From a virus: 34,081 bases of DNA. A program made the translations under genes and the position numbers. Positions within the stretch are counted from its first letter, which is position 1. Each line of letters begins with the position of its first letter. The notes beneath the pieces are model-generated. The model had not been told where the DNA came from. It saw only the letters and a list, made by a program, of their open reading frames with translations, and made no database searches. This document shows positions 3,886 to 34,081 of the stretch, one piece after another. Where the stretch lies: the IMG/VR virus record IMGVR_UViG_3300045988_110848, positions 1-34,081 of that record. One strand, given 5' to 3'.

Positions 3886-4279
3886 ATTTAATGAAAACAT
3901 CACAAAAATAACAAAAGGAATAGCAAAGTATGAAGATAATAAAGGGAATTATATGCTAATACCTACAGGCCAATTATTATGCAATGTAGAGTATATGGAA
4001 CTAGATGATATTAGTTATAAAAAAGCATTGTTTGAAAAGATAATTGATAAAAATGTTGTTTATAATAAAATTAAAGTAACAAAAGCAGTAGATAAATATA
4101 CTAAAACTAAAAATGAAAAAGATAAAGGCACTATCATAGATGCTGAAGTAGAAGTATCACAAGTATGGGTAGTTAAAAATGGTTTAGGTTTAACAAAAGC
4201 ATATAATAGAAAAGAAAAAGCCTTATCTTATGTAGAAGAAATCAATAATAAATATTTAGAAATGGCAGAGGTAAAATAA
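3866..4279 (+). CDS. Hypothetical protein
   Basis: ORF with a GGAGG SD. Confidence 0.6.
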   Translation: MERDLIKFNENITKITKGIAKYEDNKGNYMLIPTGQLLCNVEYMELDDISYKKALFEKIIDKNVVYNKIKVTKAVDKYTKTKNEKDKGTIIDAEVEVSQVWVVKNGLGLTKAYNRKEKALSYVEEINNKYLEMAEVK

Positions 4280-4482
4280 TGAGAGAAAAAGCAAATGAAC
4301 TAATGAATGCCATTTATAAGGAAGAAACTCAAGAAAAAATCAACAACACGAGAAATGCTTTTACCGACATTGCAACTTATATACTTGAAAATTTGAAAGA
4401 TAGCAGAGAAAAAAGTTTAGCAATGACAAAAATAGAAGAAGCCTGTATGTGGGCAATAAAAGGCATCACTAGAGAAAAATAG
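4279..4482 (+). CDS. Small two-helix protein with the motif SLAMTKIEEACMWAIKG
   Basis: ATGA-coupled ORF. The motif A-x-T-K-[IL]-E-E-A-x-M-W-A is one I recall recurring in small phage proteins. Confidence 0.55.
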   Translation: MREKANELMNAIYKEETQEKINNTRNAFTDIATYILENLKDSREKSLAMTKIEEACMWAIKGITREK

Positions 4483-4527: not shown

Positions 4528-4893
4528 ATGGCTAAAGAAGATAACTTAATACCAGGTGGATACAAGTTAACAATTGAAGAAGCCTCGAAAGGTGGAAAGA
4601 GGAGCGGAGAAGTAAGAAGACTTAAAAAAACCTTTAAATTGGCTTTAATGGAGGTTCTAGAAACAGAGGTAAAAGATGCTAATGGGAAGCCAACCGGAGA
4701 AACTTATCAAGACTTAGTTAATAAGGGGTTGCTTCATGGGGCAATGGCAGGTAATGCTTCCAATTATAAAACTATCCTTGAAACGATAGGAGAATTAGAG
4801 CCAGAAAAAACTGAGGTATCAGTTCCAACAATAAAATTAGAAATAGTAGATAATAGTAATTTGGAGAGTGTATTATATGATAATAAAGAATAA
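4528..4893 (+). CDS. Packaging-module protein with a KGGKRSGEVRRLKK motif; possible small terminase or DNA-binding subunit
   Basis: N-terminal NLIPGG...EEASKGGKRSGEVRR and C-terminal ...ILETIGELEPEK resemble proteins annotated as terS in Firmicute phages. From memory, not searched. Confidence 0.4.
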   Translation: MAKEDNLIPGGYKLTIEEASKGGKRSGEVRRLKKTFKLALMEVLETEVKDANGKPTGETYQDLVNKGLLHGAMAGNASNYKTILETIGELEPEKTEVSVPTIKLEIVDNSNLESVLYDNKE

Positions 4894-5218
4894 ATACCAT
4901 AACACTAAAGTTATCTATAATGGAATAAAGTTTGATAGTAAAAAAGAAATGCAGAGATATAAAGACCTTGAATTATTAGAGAGTACTGATTATATCTGTA
5001 ATCTAGAACTGCAAAAAAAATTCTTACTTCAAGAGGGATACACAAATGCTAAAGGTAAAAAGATAAGACCTATTTACTACATAGCAAACTTTTACTATTA
5101 CGATTATATTGATAATAAATGGGTAGTAGAAGATACCAAAGGAGTTAGAACAGAAGTTTATAAATTAAAGAAAAAATTATTTGAATATAAATATAATTTA
5201 ACAATAGATGAATTATAA
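4877..5218 (+). CDS. DUF1064-family protein (putative resolvase-like nuclease)
   Basis: KYHNTKVIYNGIKFDSKKEMQRYKDLELLE...YIANFYYYD...VVEDTKG...YKLKKKLF matches the DUF1064 pattern. ATG 4877 is preferred over GTG 4868. Confidence 0.7.
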   Translation: MIIKNKYHNTKVIYNGIKFDSKKEMQRYKDLELLESTDYICNLELQKKFLLQEGYTNAKGKKIRPIYYIANFYYYDYIDNKWVVEDTKGVRTEVYKLKKKLFEYKYNLTIDEL

Positions 5219-5906
5219 AAGGTTGGGAGATATACAAACCGCGAATGAGTATATCAAGTATTAATGCGAGAGGTAGGGCAAGTAATACAAATTTTGTGAA
5301 TACTACTCTTATAGGTAGTATACTGATGATATATGCCCGCTAATTTAATTAGGAGGACTTAATCGCTTATAAACGACTAGTTATATCATCAGTATAGTAC
5401 TTATAAGTATAAAAGACTTAAAGAACCGATGCCTGACTATAGTTTAGGGTGTCAGTAAACATTTATAAGTACTATCATATCCTAATTTTATTAAAGTGCT
5501 ATCTATTTTATAGGTAGCATAGAGCAGATAGAAATAATGGAGCAAATGGTTATAGAAAGTATCGCTGATGCTGGAGTACTTCTATGGAAATAGACGAACT
5601 GACGAGTTTGTTAAAGCCTTATCTGTTCTATGGTGCTTATAAAAAATATATAAAAGACTGTATCGAGTTTAACATATTAATTTATGGTTTAAAAAGCCTC
5701 GGAAGAAGTTGCTGACTGAAAAAACTAAAACGCAAGGTTTGGTTGGCCTTTATATTGATTATAAGCACTACTAAACCAAACCCCTTTATAAGTACTGCTA
5801 TTAAGCAGTACACTGATAATATGTAAGTGTAGGTTAGGTTCGCCAATGTGGCACTATATTTCTAACAGGCTAACTACTTTAGAAAACTAGACATATTATT
5901 AGTGTA
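5219..5906 (+). ncRNA. ORF-free, hairpin-dense island: candidate large structured RNA and/or pac/cos region
   Basis: No ORF of 60 aa or more in any frame. Many hand-paired helices, including G.U pairs valid only on the + strand. Dispersed direct repeats. Confidence 0.4.
5308..5407. repeat. Long inverted repeat, 5308-5333 / 5382-5407 (26 positions: 1 mismatch, 1 G.U), with a 48-nt spacer
   Basis: Paired base by base (i+j=5415). Confidence 0.85.
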
Positions 5907-5945
5907 GTGTTTAATAACACTGGAAAGAAAAAGGAGGTGTCAGAA

Positions 5946-6188
5946 ATGGCAAAAAAAAGTAACGATGGAAAGAAAAAGGTTGATGTTATCAGTTTAGATA
6001 ACAAGCCAGTTAATCCAGAAGTACAAAAAGAAAAAGTAGAAGTACCTACAAAGTTCGTTAAAGTTGGTTCTACTACTCCAAAAACAGTAGAAAGTAAAAT
6101 CAAGTTAAATAATGGAAGAGTATATAAAAACTTAGGCAATGGCTATGGTATGTATTCTGATAATGGACAAGTATTTAGACTTAAATAG
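5946..6188 (+). CDS. Hypothetical lysine-rich 80-aa protein
   Basis: AAGGAGG SD at 5931-5937 before ATG 5946. The track start at 5907 lies in a hairpin. Confidence 0.55.
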   Translation: MAKKSNDGKKKVDVISLDNKPVNPEVQKEKVEVPTKFVKVGSTTPKTVESKIKLNNGRVYKNLGNGYGMYSDNGQVFRLK

Positions 6189-6197
6189 GAGGTAAAT

Positions 6198-6434
6198 ATG
6201 GAGTTTATTAAGTTAAGAGAAGATAGATACTTAATCAAAGATAGCAATGGTTTGATAGTATCTAATGAAGAGAAACTAAAACTAGAAAAGAAAGAATTAA
6301 TCATTAAAGATATAGAAAGCAATGAGTGTCAAGGAAAGACTACTCAAAGAATTGAGGAAATAGATAGGGAGTTGGAAAATGGAAACAAGTCTAAATCTAA
6401 CACTATCAAAAAAGCAAAGTCAACTACTAAATGA
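6198..6434 (+). CDS. Hypothetical 78-aa coiled-coil protein that overlaps the terL start
   Basis: TAGGAGG SD. Its position directly before terL is where a small terminase subunit is usually found. Confidence 0.5.
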   Translation: MEFIKLREDRYLIKDSNGLIVSNEEKLKLEKKELIIKDIESNECQGKTTQRIEEIDRELENGNKSKSNTIKKAKSTTK

Positions 6435-7980
6435 TATAATTAGTCCTAATCTAAATGAGATATATGTATTAGGAAGCACTCAAAGTGGTAAGACTTATGA
6501 TATATGCTTAGGGTGTATCTTATATGCACAAGCCTTATATAATTATAACCCAAAAGAAACCTATTTTGGTTCTATAACTGGTTGGAGTTTGGAAACATTA
6601 AAAGGAAACATATTAGAGCCTTTAAAGAAGTTTTTAGATGATATGAAGTTAGAAAAAGGCAAAGATTACATATTAAGGTGGCAGACTGATGAAAAGTATC
6701 TAGAAATATATAATATTAGATACTATTTCTTTGGTTTTAATAATGTACTTGCATTTAATAAGATATTAGGTAAACCTTTGATATTTGAATGGATAGATGA
6801 AAGTGCTAGAATATACTCACAAGATAATTTAAGAGAACCATTTAATGAATTTCCTGGTAGACAAGTATCTTATGCAGACCATCCTTATTTAAAGACTATA
6901 CATTCATTCAATGTCGAGGGTGGGGAAAATCATCCATATAAGATTGATTACATAGATAAGAAACCTTATGCTAAGCATTATTCCTTTTTTCCTTATGATA
7001 ATCCTAAGATAAAAACAGAAGAAGCAATGCGAAAGGTATTAGAAATGTTTCCACCTGGAAATCTAAGAGAACAAAAAATATTTAATAGATGGATACTTGC
7101 GACTGGTAGGGTATTCAATACTATAAATACTATAGACAATTTAGATAATTATGCTTTTAGAGAAATAGGAATAGGAATAGACTATGGTTCAGTTCACGCA
7201 ACAGCCTTTGTGCCTATTGCTCTTGCTTATGATAAAGTAAATAAGAAATGGGTGTTAATAAGGTTAGAATATTATTACCATAATGCTAAAGAAGAACAAG
7301 ATAACCCTACAACCGAATATTTCAGCAAACAATTAAGATTATTCTTATTGTATCTAAAAAGTGAATATGGACAAGTGCCTATAACTACAATGGTATTAGA
7401 TAGTGCAGCCGCTCATTTCCATAATAGGTTAATTGCTGATAATATATCACATACATTAATCAATAAAAGTATGGATGATGTAGTTGAGGGAGTTCAATAT
7501 ATGCAATCTTTGTTCTATAAGGGATATCTGCTTATATACAAACAAAAAGCAATTAAGCATATAACTGATAGTGGTGAGTTAATTTATAGTGGTAAAGATG
7601 ATGGAATGCTTGAATTAGAGAGTTATAGATATGATTTAAAGGCAAGTTCAAAAAGTGGAAAAGAAGCCTATGTAAAAGAGTTTGATGACCATATAGATGC
7701 TTGCTTAACAGGAGATACTATTATTGCAACAGATAGAGGTAATTTCAAAATAATTGATTTAGTTGGAAAAAGTGGAAATGTTAAATGCTTTGATGGTAAT
7801 AGATTTATATATAAAAATTTTAAAGATGTAAGGCTTACAAAAAGAAAACAAGACATATATAAATTAAAATTATCAAATGGTTATGAATTAAAAGGTACAT
7901 ACGACCATCTTATATTAACTACAAAAGGCTATAAGAAATTAGGAGAATTAACTAAAAAAGATAAAATCATTTGCAATTGA
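6379..7980 (+). CDS. terL: Terminase large subunit N-fragment (extein 6379-7701) fused to an N-intein (7702-7977); ends in a TGA stop
   Basis: Walker A GSTQSGKT. The nuclease motif DDHIDA is followed directly by intein block A CLTGDTIIAT and block B GTYDHLILT. Confidence 0.85.
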   Translation: METSLNLTLSKKQSQLLNDIISPNLNEIYVLGSTQSGKTYDICLGCILYAQALYNYNPKETYFGSITGWSLETLKGNILEPLKKFLDDMKLEKGKDYILRWQTDEKYLEIYNIRYYFFGFNNVLAFNKILGKPLIFEWIDESARIYSQDNLREPFNEFPGRQVSYADHPYLKTIHSFNVEGGENHPYKIDYIDKKPYAKHYSFFPYDNPKIKTEEAMRKVLEMFPPGNLREQKIFNRWILATGRVFNTINTIDNLDNYAFREIGIGIDYGSVHATAFVPIALAYDKVNKKWVLIRLEYYYHNAKEEQDNPTTEYFSKQLRLFLLYLKSEYGQVPITTMVLDSAAAHFHNRLIADNISHTLINKSMDDVVEGVQYMQSLFYKGYLLIYKQKAIKHITDSGELIYSGKDDGMLELESYRYDLKASSKSGKEAYVKEFDDHIDACLTGDTIIATDRGNFKIIDLVGKSGNVKCFDGNRFIYKNFKDVRLTKRKQDIYKLKLSNGYELKGTYDHLILTTKGYKKLGELTKKDKIICN

Positions 7981-8005
7981 CACGATTAGATATTTATTGT
8001 ATAAT
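7977..8005 (+). promoter_or_regulatory. Promoter P2: TTGACA-17 nt-TATAAT with an extended TG, in front of the intein-borne HNH gene
   Basis: The -35 box overlaps the TGA stop (7978-7980) of the TerL N-fragment; spacer counted by hand. Confidence 0.6.
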
Positions 8006-8023
8006 TAACTAGGAGATGGTTAT

Positions 8024-8650
8024 ATGATAAAATATGAAAATGGTTATGCTTATGTTGATGGTTATAAATTTAAGAAAAATACAAGAGATAATTATTATTT
8101 ATCTTCTACCAATATTGGCAATAGAAGAAAATATTTGCACATTTATATATGGGAAAAGCATAATGGAGAAATACCAAAAGGTTATGATATACACCATATA
8201 GACCACAATAAAGATAACAATGAAATAAGCAACCTTAAAATGATATTAAAAAGAGAACATAGCATATTACATTCAAAAGAATTAACCGAAGAACAAAAAG
8301 CAAAAAAAATAAAGAACTTTAATGAAAAGGCAAGACCAAAAGCAATAGAATGGCATAAATCAAAAAAAGCAGAAAAATTCCATAAAGAACAATATAAAAT
8401 TTCTCTAGGAAAAATGAAACCGCAAAAAATTACTTGTGAAAATTGTGGGAAAGATTATTATTCAATTTGTAATGGTAGAAATAAATTTTGTTCTAATAAA
8501 TGTAAAAGTGCTTATAGAAGAAAAATAGGAGTAGATAATATTGAAAAAGAATGTATCAAATGTGGAGAAAAATTTGAAGTTAACAAATATTCAAAAAGAG
8601 AGCAATGTTATAATTGCTACCCCTGTAGAAATAAAAAAACTTCCAAATAA
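8024..8650 (+). CDS. Free-standing HNH homing-type endonuclease with C-terminal zinc ribbons
   Basis: AGGAG SD 8 nt before the ATG. HNH core HHIDHNKDNNEISNLKMILKREHSILH. CxxC pairs near the C-terminus. Confidence 0.85.
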   Translation: MIKYENGYAYVDGYKFKKNTRDNYYLSSTNIGNRRKYLHIYIWEKHNGEIPKGYDIHHIDHNKDNNEISNLKMILKREHSILHSKELTEEQKAKKIKNFNEKARPKAIEWHKSKKAEKFHKEQYKISLGKMKPQKITCENCGKDYYSICNGRNKFCSNKCKSAYRRKIGVDNIEKECIKCGEKFEVNKYSKREQCYNCYPCRNKKTSK

Positions 8651-8774
8651 AGAAGATGTTTATAATATGGAAGTGGAAGAAGTACATAATTTTGTTGCTA
8701 ATGGAATTGTAGTTCATAATTGTAGATATATCATAATAGAGTTTAAAGAAACTGATAGAGCACCAGTAGTATAA
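8541..8774 (+). CDS. terL: C-intein (Hint-like from about 8610 to 8720) plus 17-aa TerL C-extein CRYIIIEFKETDRAPVV
   Basis: Blocks F/G VYNMEVEEVHNFVANGIVVHN|C. TTG 8541 is preceded by AGGAG (8527-8531, 9-nt spacing) inside the HNH ORF. Confidence 0.7.
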   Translation: MKKNVSNVEKNLKLTNIQKESNVIIATPVEIKKLPNKEDVYNMEVEEVHNFVANGIVVHNCRYIIIEFKETDRAPVV

Positions 8775-8788
8775 AAGGAGTTGAATAT

Positions 8789-9310
8789 ATGGAAATGCAA
8801 GAAATTTGGAAAGATATCAAAAATTATGAAGGATTATATCAAGTCAGCAATTATGGGAAAGTAAAAAGTTTACCAAGAAAAGGAACACAAGCAAAAGAAG
8901 AAAGAATATTAAAAGTCAGTTATACTTATAATGGCTATGAAAGAGTTAATTTGTGTAAGAACAATAAAAATAAACGATATTTAGTTCATAGATTAGTTGC
9001 GGAAACATTTATTCTAAATCCTAATGAATATCCTCAGATAAATCATATTGATGAAAACAAGCAAAATAATAAAGTTAGTAATTTAGAATGGTGTACTCGT
9101 TCTTATAACATTAATTATGGTAATAGAAATAATTGTTTGAATAAAGAAGTGTGGCAATATGATTTAAAAGGGAAATTAATAAAAAAATGGAAAAGTACAA
9201 TGGAAATACAAAGAAATTTAGGATTTAAAAATCAAAATATAAGTTCTGCGTGTAGAGGAACATACCATAAAGCATATAATTATATATGGAAATACAAAGG
9301 GGTTGATTAA
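8789..9310 (+). CDS. NUMOD4 + HNH_3-type homing endonuclease
   Basis: EIWKDIKNYEGLYQVSNYGKVKS and INHIDENKQNNKVSNLEW motifs; AAGGAG SD. Confidence 0.8.
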   Translation: MEMQEIWKDIKNYEGLYQVSNYGKVKSLPRKGTQAKEERILKVSYTYNGYERVNLCKNNKNKRYLVHRLVAETFILNPNEYPQINHIDENKQNNKVSNLEWCTRSYNINYGNRNNCLNKEVWQYDLKGKLIKKWKSTMEIQRNLGFKNQNISSACRGTYHKAYNYIWKYKGVD

Positions 9311-9539: not shown

Positions 9540-9585
9540 TTAAGAGATAGAAAAGTGCGAAAAAGTGTGTCGTAAACATAAGAAG

Positions 9586-9617
9586 CATATAGTTAAAGAG
9601 ATAACTATATGTTTTTT
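9586..9617 (+). terminator. Intrinsic terminator: 10-bp stem CATATAGTTA/TAACTATATG, 6-nt loop, T6 tract
   Basis: Paired by hand; lies about 45 nt downstream of the P3 -10 box. Confidence 0.75.
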
Positions 9618-9647
9618 ATTATTTATACACATAGAAAGGAGTTAGAA

Positions 9648-33780: not shown

Positions 33781-34081
33781 AATCGATTTAAATACAATTA
33801 CTTTTGAACAAATAGTAAAAATATTAGGAATATTTAACAAAATGTTAGAAAGTGGTATTTTGCAAGTAGATTTAGAAAAATCAACAGCATATTTCAATAT
33901 AGATGATTGTTTAACATATTTAGAGCAACAAATTAAGAGATTAAAACAAGAAAACGAGAAATTAAAAGAAACAATAGATAAAGTAAATGTATTTCTTAAT
34001 AATCATGATAAAAATGCAGGTAAATTATATTATAAATATAATAATAAATACCTATTAAGTGAAATTAAAGAAGATATCAGA
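33773..34081 (+). CDS. Hypothetical coiled-coil protein; the ORF runs off the window end and continues at nt 48-71
   Basis: ATG 33773. 103 codons stay open to the last base. After the overlap the frame continues K-I-L-K-E-V-E-stop (TAA 69-71). Confidence 0.6.
   Translation, partial: MNKIDLNTITFEQIVKILGIFNKMLESGILQVDLEKSTAYFNIDDCLTYLEQQIKRLKQENEKLKETIDKVNVFLNNHDKNAGKLYYKYNNKYLLSEIKEDIR
34035..34081. repeat. Second copy of the 47-nt terminal overlap
   Basis: Identical to nt 1-47. Confidence 0.95.

Follow-up and report, generated by a model that had tools for sequence, protein, structure and literature searches.

Three hairpin-framed cassettes, which belong to a large family, stand in tandem at positions 5219-5906 of the viral record IMGVR_UViG_3300045988_110848. 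The array fills a 688-nucleotide (nt) island on the plus strand, between the stop codon of a DUF1064 gene and the ribosome-binding site (RBS) of a gene encoding 80 amino acids (aa; ATG at 5946); by the window we mean the whole 34,081-nt stretch analyzed. Each member, or unit, consists of two complementary arms, which together form a conserved helix (the frame), and of an enclosed insert (the cargo). The family is helix-constrained, strand-specific, co-oriented with neighboring genes, and frames stable RNAs, and it is carried by uncultured gut and rumen Bacillota phages. By analogy with ribosomal RNA (rRNA) operons, the frames may be leader-trailer helices that process and insulate small RNAs in a late transcript, a reading to which we give about an even chance. 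Framed and processed small RNAs are already known as a kind; it is the combination of a constant frame with a hypervariable cargo that makes the organization unusual.

The three longest helices of the island (5308-5333/5382-5407, 5500-5530/5620-5650, and 5796-5824/5891-5919) have related arms, and their left arms form one direct-repeat family. The frame comprises about 25 positions: nine pairs, an invariant G opposite G, and then 15 pairs that include a conserved G.U. When the 34-kb window is scanned for this signature (G opposite G, with nine outer and 14 inner pairs in register, G.U allowed), exactly three units are recovered, all on the plus strand, anchored at the G/G positions given in Table 1 and each with 14/14 inner and 9/9 outer pairs. 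The same scan finds no unit on the minus strand, and shuffled sequences give 0.05. All of the helices that a sequence-only reading of this DNA had earlier paired by hand are present. One of them, 5521-5531/5619-5629, exists but is merely the inner part of the 25-position frame of unit 2.

Across the family, there is extensive compensatory change in the frame helix. Among 172 unique stems, pairing reaches about 97% from position -9 to position +15 relative to the G/G, with up to four to five Watson-Crick pair types per position (at +5, for example, CG 111, GC 36, UA 15, and AU 8), and the G.U at +7 is retained in 77%. Covariation was scored on 62 stems thinned to <93% identity. Here 96.6% of cells are paired, compared with 70.6% after shuffling; 22 of the 25 pairs have changed on both sides (shuffled mean, 17.8); and the covariation score is 0.763 against 0.255, a value reached by none of 500 shuffles. 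Slid registers leave 28%-50% of the cells paired.

The wobble pairs of the stems distinguish the strands, with 479 G.U against 26 A.C. Several G.U pairs had been cited earlier in favor of the plus strand, and the asymmetry holds both family-wide and in the window, where it is clearest in unit 2; this unit folds at -45.6 kcal/mol (z = -4.5) on the plus strand and at -22.8 kcal/mol (z = -1.2) on the minus strand. All 77 units that lie ≤600 nt from a transfer RNA (tRNA) gene are co-oriented with that tRNA, and 466 of 484 nearest or flanking open reading frames (ORFs) are on the strand of the unit. The earlier proposal of a plus-strand structured RNA locus is thus backed by covariation and by strand-specific G.U pairs. 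The element has the pairing ability of a plus-strand RNA, and it is presumably expressed as one, transcribed with the surrounding operon here and with tRNA genes elsewhere. We rejected a promoter or terminator reading of the arms: They hold TGATGATATA, but no consensus is predicted in the island, and TGATGATATA is lost in arm types B, C, and D while pairing is kept.

The family is large and widespread. An exact search with a 20-mer of the type A arm (the left arm of unit 1, GGTAGTRTACTGATGATATA) returned 97 IMG/VR stretches and 26 contigs of metagenome-assembled genomes (MAGs), the latter from gut and rumen and labeled Tenericutes, Bacilli, Erysipelotrichaceae, Coprosoma, and similar. A 20-mer of the type B arm returned 93 further IMG/VR stretches, and the matches listed for the arm 20-mers come from at least about 50 different metagenome identifiers. 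Loci totaling 2.1 Mb, fetched for comparison and designated by L-numbers, yielded 445 units, 360 of them unique, with arms of 26-31 nt. They occur mostly two to three in tandem, in a single cluster of one to five units per locus, and 134 of 136 loci have every unit on one strand.

Database searches did not connect the element with a described RNA. Rfam models gave no match at the gathering score anywhere in the window, and at expectation values (E) of up to 10 over positions 5100-6000, they returned nothing but chance microRNA and small nucleolar RNA matches arising from the long stem and a CUGAUGA string. A hammerhead or C/D-box reading of this string was rejected: It is base-paired here, and no Rfam ribozyme or small nucleolar RNA model is supported. 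In two sets of 15 and nine related loci, Rfam matched tRNAs alone. Among GenBank phage isolates, the 801-nt region has no match, and a 33-nt arm query gave one 18-nt chance match; we found no description of the element in the searchable literature. A survey of candidate structured RNAs in IMG/VR includes unnamed motifs upstream of terminase genes (PMC10690425), among which the element may be represented. A covariance model of our own (R1) was built from the stems with an artificial GAAA loop; since real inserts are 48-290 nt long, R1 could not span them, and its output, which was noise, was dropped in favor of the in-register scan. Its best match in the window, although weak (16.8 bits, E = 0.025), is an AT-rich hairpin at 9575-9622 (AACATAAGAAGCATATAGTTA ... 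TAACTATATGTTTTTTATTAT) that overlaps the start of the gene at 9609 and does not have the G/G signature of the family. If confirmed, this would be a large unrecognized RNA family, with hundreds of members in gut and rumen viromes, that is absent from Rfam 15 and from GenBank phage isolates, and its logic of one conserved helix around hypervariable structured cargo would be unusual. In practical terms, two 20-mers or the G/G-anchored helix would then suffice to pull out hundreds of candidate phage small RNAs with predefined boundaries, framed tRNAs and tRNA mimics among them, and the frame could serve as an RNA expression scaffold for Bacillota.

The cargos show large variation in both length and content. 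They range from <20 to ∼375 nt (median, 68 nt) and fall into 217 classes without detectable mutual similarity, 162 of which are singletons. Most are small structured RNAs; the remainder include tRNA-Trp, tRNA-like RNAs, and one small-ORF type. Cargo 2 of the window contains two internal hairpins and a closing helix (GGUU/AGCC or GGUU/ACC) of a kind common to many cargos; it shows a covarying hairpin and has homologs with compensatory changes in four loci (L132, L080, L074, and L137); in L132 the homolog sits in an end-hairpin frame, not in the main frame. Cargo 3 is predicted to be pseudoknotted, the pseudoknot helix being 98% paired with three compensated pairs, all from one lineage, and it is also found within type A arms in a different phage group (L035 and L104). 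We considered whether cargos might be spacer-like or antisense sequences and rejected this: In 1.35 Mb of phage loci, they match nothing but other units, some of which the scan had missed.

Four loci (L085, L201, L207, and L230) have a tRNA-Trp(CCA) inside the frame, comprising three tRNA sequences and both arm types, with the right arm beginning 1-2 nt after the CCA. In three others (L158, L168, and L064), tRNA-like cargos have their D and T arms joined straight to the frame, as if the frame replaced the acceptor stem. These cargos (at 8929-9036 in L158, about 2407 in L168, and about 12903 in L064) have the T arm GGTTCGAATCC, no free acceptor end, and an insert in the anticodon region; one of these apparently acceptor-less cargos is called by ARAGORN as a 93-nt tRNA-Arg(acg). 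Units also adjoin tRNA genes, as in L090, where the order is tRNA-Ile, three units, a small ORF, and tRNA-Leu, the first unit starting 2 nt past the tRNA. In the small-ORF type (L050, L086, L126, and L127; e.g., 599-931 in L127), the frame encloses an ORF of 78-84 aa with its own Shine-Dalgarno sequence and a conserved C terminus (WLMNNEGKTIERLV); a circular Bacilli MAG contig of 1.2 Mb has one copy at its start.

Relatives of the window show that parts of the array are gained, lost, and exchanged independently. A TerL-based search gave 22 related IMG/VR loci, in which the gap holding the island varies from 303 to 746 nt. Only about 5798-6000, that is, unit 3 and the RBS, is conserved in nearly all of them. 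The whole island is present in one contig (L016); other relatives lack 5645-5759, or 5418-5628, or both 5218-5300 and 5475-5758, or have a different sequence there. Among the 19 island-bearing relatives, unit 3 is the sole fixed unit, at a constant distance from terL; upstream of it, ten cargo classes appear in shuffled combinations, giving one to three units per locus. In L013, the right arms of units 1 and 2 are fused, which indicates recombination between similar arms. Near-identical frames also act as recombination handles, and related phages differ by cargo swaps, deletions, and fusions as a result. The relative L020 (TerL 86% identical) is missing both the island and the DUF1064 gene, and only 12 nt separate its terS-like gene from the small gene (L020 5188-5600); since both are absent together, the DUF1064 gene and the island behave as one accessory insertion.

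The leader-trailer reading draws on rRNA operons, in which leader-trailer stalks are cut by RNase III and, in Firmicutes, trimming is by Mini-III or RNase M5. As in those operons, a long helix drawn from the two flanks of a stable RNA joins its 5′ and 3′ ends, the transcripts would be polycistronic and also bear tRNAs, and the duplex is long enough for RNase III. The 25-position covarying helix, ∼97% paired across the family, surrounds genuine tRNA-Trp genes in the four loci noted above and structured cargos in the window. Units share the strand of every nearby tRNA and of nearly all flanking ORFs. The units differ from rRNA stalks in that one near-constant helix, with an invariant G/G, surrounds more than 200 unrelated small cargos, in tandem and in phages. 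We suggest that the frame would clamp both ends of the cargo so that the cargo folds alone within a long polycistronic transcript, and that it would offer a duplex of more than 20 bp (about 25 bp) to a double-strand-specific endoribonuclease of the RNase III type. Cutting could then free or stabilize a cargo RNA whose ends are protected by the helix or could expose the cargo for end trimming of the tRNA type. Unit 3, 8 nt 5′ of the next RBS, may also define the 5′ end of the packaging messenger RNA (mRNA) that follows and shield it.

Phage R sites (in T7) and the RNase III sites of the Bacillus phage SP82 shape mRNA ends and stability. They share with the units the form of conserved, repeated, irregular hairpins between phage operon genes; they differ in being simple hairpins that are not known to enclose a cargo or to carry variable inserts, and no similarity in sequence is known. 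A dedicated partner protein was looked for among the neighbors of units, but none of the ORF clusters within 4 kb is universal, so any factor acting on the frame is probably host-borne or encoded elsewhere.

Several observations weigh against processing frames as an explanation. For every member of the family, transcription, cleavage, and the enzyme are things we infer. No sigma-70-type promoter and no intrinsic terminator is predicted in the island, which would therefore be read through from upstream or from an unrecognized late promoter. A framed protein gene, as found in four loci, fits a generic cassette boundary equally well as RNA processing. G.T wobbles are also tolerated in single-stranded DNA, which leaves room for strand-specific DNA folding. 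The competing end-hairpins described below covary too, hinting at a more complex switch that is outside our model. Finally, because detection of a unit required pairing and, for the large scans, the G/G anchor as well, the percentage paired and the invariance of the G/G, of the A-U at -1, and of the restricted pair at -2 are partly circular. The diversity of compensated pairs and the asymmetry between G.U and A.C are free of this circularity, as is a list of hairpins built without the anchor, in which G/G is the dominant non-wobble mismatch and always stands in a GGTAG context.

Exchange at the arms is also what might be expected of mobile or exchangeable cassettes acting as DNA, whose arms would be recombination sites or terminal inverted repeats like those of miniature inverted-repeat transposable elements (MITEs), with RNA folding incidental. 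Arms of 26-30 nt surround internal segments of very different length and content, one unit recurs at 97%-100% identity in unrelated backbones with similarity stopping at the arms, deletion breakpoints fall in the arms, cargo is replaced within identical frames between phages with TerL 86%-98% identical, and the cargos include complete small genes and tRNAs. Yet the units are not dispersed, forming one cluster per genome with a uniform strand in almost all loci; a transposase site in duplex DNA has no need of G.U over A.C; deletion derivatives of one parent would not be expected to look like the 217 unrelated cargo classes; neither a transposase nor an integrase is a recurrent neighbor within 4 kb; and homologous recombination between similar arms accounts for the rearrangements. 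Correia (CREE/NEMIS) and ERIC repeats are MITE-like palindromic elements that are co-transcribed and whose hairpins are cleaved by RNases. They share with the units inverted arms (∼26 nt), an interior of variable length, a transcribed intergenic location, and RNA hairpins, but their copies are scattered over chromosomes in either orientation, have few internal variants, and show a TA duplication, whereas the units are clustered on one strand in phages around hypervariable cargo. The arms have the length of MITE-type terminal inverted repeats (∼20-30 nt), and dispersed two-orientation copies with a common interior are not seen; as for the base of the helix, TTATA/TATAA, a TA or TTA target-site duplication would look identical to pairing there. 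Integron attC arrays likewise consist of exchangeable cassettes, with imperfect palindromes, conserved unpaired bases, a variable center, and strand-specific folding. An attC site, however, lies beside its cargo, acts as single-stranded DNA, and needs the IntI integrase, while the arms enclose the cargo, have no recurrent integrase within 4 kb, and frame RNAs with covariation of their own. We consider a purely DNA-level explanation unlikely, and it is compatible with the processing frame as a secondary property. Less likely still is that the hairpins are a cis-acting leader of the late (packaging) operon, controlling or stabilizing the downstream mRNA (as a 5′ stabilizer against RNase J or by translational coupling or antitermination) around cargos without function of their own. 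Units do stand just 5′ of terS- or terL-type genes in many phages, and in 19/19 island-bearing relatives unit 3 keeps its place 8 nt ahead of the Shine-Dalgarno sequence of the next gene; against this, the upstream units vary freely, L020 manages without the island, units also occur in tRNA clusters and around tRNAs, and cargos have their own conserved, covarying structures.

The sequence-only reading had proposed one large ornate RNA of ∼690 nt, of the ROOL or GOLLD class or a new one, with a terminase recognition region (pac/cos) as an alternative or additional explanation. The island is indeed long, ORF-free, and strongly structured, and the setting, a phage of rumen or gut Bacillota, is one in which ROOL and GOLLD occur in phages and prophages, often beside tRNA genes (e.g., PMC5737381, PMC12286853); this phage and tRNA neighborhood is a trait of the family too. 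ROOL (RF03087) and GOLLD (RF01998), however, are each one conserved RNA, 500-800 nt long, whose multidomain architecture is fixed, whereas the island consists of independent units, each 100-140 nt long, in an array that varies. It matches neither model, nor any other Rfam family, at E up to 10, and so, with no fixed large architecture either, it is not ROOL or GOLLD. Relatives hold one to three units in varied combinations, each unit folds by itself and occurs alone in unrelated phages, parts are independently lost or exchanged between close relatives, and no conserved long-range helix links the units; we therefore regard a single large RNA as very improbable. An action of the island as duplex DNA in pac/cos recognition fares worst and has, in our view, hardly any likelihood. 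Its position between the terS-like gene and terL and its internal repeated motifs would suit such a role, but the repeats covary as a helix in a strand-specific manner, and unit number and content differ among phages with near-identical terminases. Moreover, arms that agree exactly over 20 nt stand upstream of four mutually unalignable TerL clusters (BLASTP, E < 1e-8) and of different TerS families, and L020 has no island; a sequence common to phages with unrelated terminases is not a specific pac/cos site. The ends of the contig are uninformative about virion termini, since a 47-nt direct repeat (1-47 and 34035-34081) marks it as a circular assembly of about 34,034 bp. If confirmed, the lesson for annotation would be that long "empty" gaps 5′ of terminase genes in these phages are cassette arrays and not packaging sites.

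Returning to the processing frame, we note that the element may be compared to rRNA stalks and phage RNase III sites in likely mechanism, to Correia and ERIC repeats in form, and to integrons in population behavior. In a more speculative extension, possible though on balance doubtful, phage small RNAs acting in trans on the host would form a library that is rapidly exchanged, and the frame would be the universal scaffold on which they are displayed and processed (loosely, an "RNA integron"). Such a library could be the noncoding counterpart of phage accessory or anti-defense gene islands; its members would act, for example, as decoys for, or inhibitors of, immune systems that target tRNA or sense RNA, or would be tRNAs kept as protected tail-less precursors. 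Hints that fit are the more than 200 unsaturated cargo classes, the tRNA-Trp and acceptor-less cargos, turnover among near-identical phages, and an Acb2/Tad1-like gene upstream. The tRNA and tRNA-mimic cargos, together with unsaturated diversity and rapid exchange, point to an accessory and possibly host-directed role, and the framed tRNA-Trp and fast cassette turnover make RNase III-type processing and anti-defense roles testable questions.

The features of the island and of its borders are given in Table 1.

Table 1. Features of the cassette array and its borders, in window coordinates
Feature	Position	Strand	Parts, basis, and remarks
DUF1064 / Holliday-junction-resolvase-like gene	4868-5218	+	Pfam PF06356 (2e-26), PHROG 190
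Variable leader segment	5219-5299	+	Small hairpin at about 5257-5304; blastn of window segments against loci, fold
Left end-hairpin, unit 1	5300-5321	+	ATACTAC 5300-5306 / GTAGTAT 5315-5321; read from sequence
Unit 1 (type A arms)	5308-5407	+	Frame 5308-5333/5382-5407; G/G 5318/5397; cargo 1 5334-5381
Secondary frame 1b	5394-5475	+	5394-5406 (end of right arm) pairs with 5463-5475 around cargo 1b, 5407-5462
Left end-hairpin, unit 2	5496-5520	+	5496-5505/5511-5520; read from sequence
Unit 2 (type B arms)	5506-5644	+	Frame 5506-5531/5619-5644; G/G 5517/5633; cargo 2 5532-5618
Secondary frame 2b	5631-5770	+	5631-5650 pairs with 5751-5770 around cargo 2b, 5651-5750
Left end-hairpin, unit 3	5792-5811	+	5792-5799/5804-5811, ATTA loop; used by the minimum free energy fold
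Unit 3 (type C arms)	5799-5916	+	Frame 5799-5824/5891-5916; G/G 5808/5907
Cargo 3, compact pseudoknotted RNA (predicted)	5825-5890	+	Hairpins 5842-5844/5850-5852 and 5859-5865/5879-5885; pseudoknot 5829-5837 with 5870-5877; alignment
Right end-hairpin, unit 3	5906-5921	+	5906-5911/5916-5921; 8 nt 5′ of the Shine-Dalgarno sequence
Shine-Dalgarno AAGGAGG and ATG (5946) of the 80-aa gene	5929-5948	+	Conserved in all relatives

The smaller hairpins at the edges of the units follow a common plan, in which the first or last approximately six bases of an arm pair with the adjoining flank. These end-hairpins, which recur across the family in the arrangement a′-loop-a with matched variants such as ACTACC/GGTAGT and ACTGCT/AGCAGT, include three of the hairpins paired in the sequence-only reading (the left ones of units 2 and 3 and the right one of unit 3). 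End-hairpins compete with the base of the helix, as the left one of unit 1 does; the left one of unit 3 is a compensated variant relative to type A. In the minimum free energy fold of unit 2, the end-hairpin is not formed, and the frame helix is lengthened instead. At two places, the secondary frames 1b and 2b, the end-hairpin encloses a further insert. The arms of frame 1b are 13 nt long and 100% complementary, and cargo 1b has a homolog in L033 (85% identity); cargo 2b is also present in L040 and L011 and partially in L095, and the alternative helix 5736-5744/5774-5782 overlaps frame 2b. The leader segment is present in just three other loci, L003, L016, and L099, of which the last two were fetched from the same contig.

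The island also stands out in composition and folding. It contains no plus-strand ORF of ≥55 aa and is the longest such gap of the window, the next-largest being 261, 197, and 192 nt. As had been proposed, it is less AT-biased, with a GC content of 0.30-0.35 against about 0.24-0.27 just upstream (∼0.25), and the AT skew falls from ∼0.24 to 0.01-0.1. Relative to dinucleotide shuffles, the island folds with z = -5.0 on the plus strand and -4.7 on the minus strand; for unit 1, z is -5.2. ARAGORN and the Rfam tRNA model find no tRNA or transfer-messenger RNA cloverleaf in the window. The ATG ORF at 5245-5343 is not, as had been thought, the only one in the island: A second, at 5584-5715 (43 aa), has a possible Shine-Dalgarno GGAG 9-10 nt upstream. 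It is not a conserved gene, since its ATG reads ACG in all four homologs of the segment.

Across the loci, units lie mostly at the boundary 5′ of the packaging genes. Their upstream neighbors include a PHROG 36 transcription regulator (23 loci) and DUF1064 (17 loci), and downstream there are TerS-like proteins of at least two families, a TerS-like helix-turn-helix protein being among the most frequent neighbors. In the window, the product of 4528-4893, previously suggested to be TerS, matches just PHROG 2412 (unknown function), with no Pfam, NCBIfam, or meaningful Protein Data Bank (PDB) match, and these searches did not confirm it as TerS; that the island splits an otherwise contiguous operon stands, as L020 illustrates, with the DUF1064 gene included in the split.

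Two further features of the neighborhood are recorded here. About 740 nt upstream of the island, the 67-aa product of 4279-4482 has a hairpin domain of the Acb2/Tad1 type (Pfam PF24729, 4.6e-16), which makes it a candidate sponge for signaling nucleotides of CBASS or Thoeris. Downstream, terL is interrupted (6379-8774): Residues 1-442 of the 458-aa TerL of relatives are encoded at 6379-7704 and the last 17 at 8721-8771, within an ORF at 8541-8774 that holds the TerL C-extein. Between the two parts lie an intein N-splicing region (CLTGDT...) that runs to a stop at 7980 and a free-standing HNH_3 ORF at 8024-8650, and a second endonuclease-type gene, NUMOD4-HNH, follows terL at 8789-9310. In 13 related loci, the ORF listing has an uninterrupted 458-aa terL, and the interruption here resembles an intein that has been split or disrupted and whose endonuclease gene stands apart.

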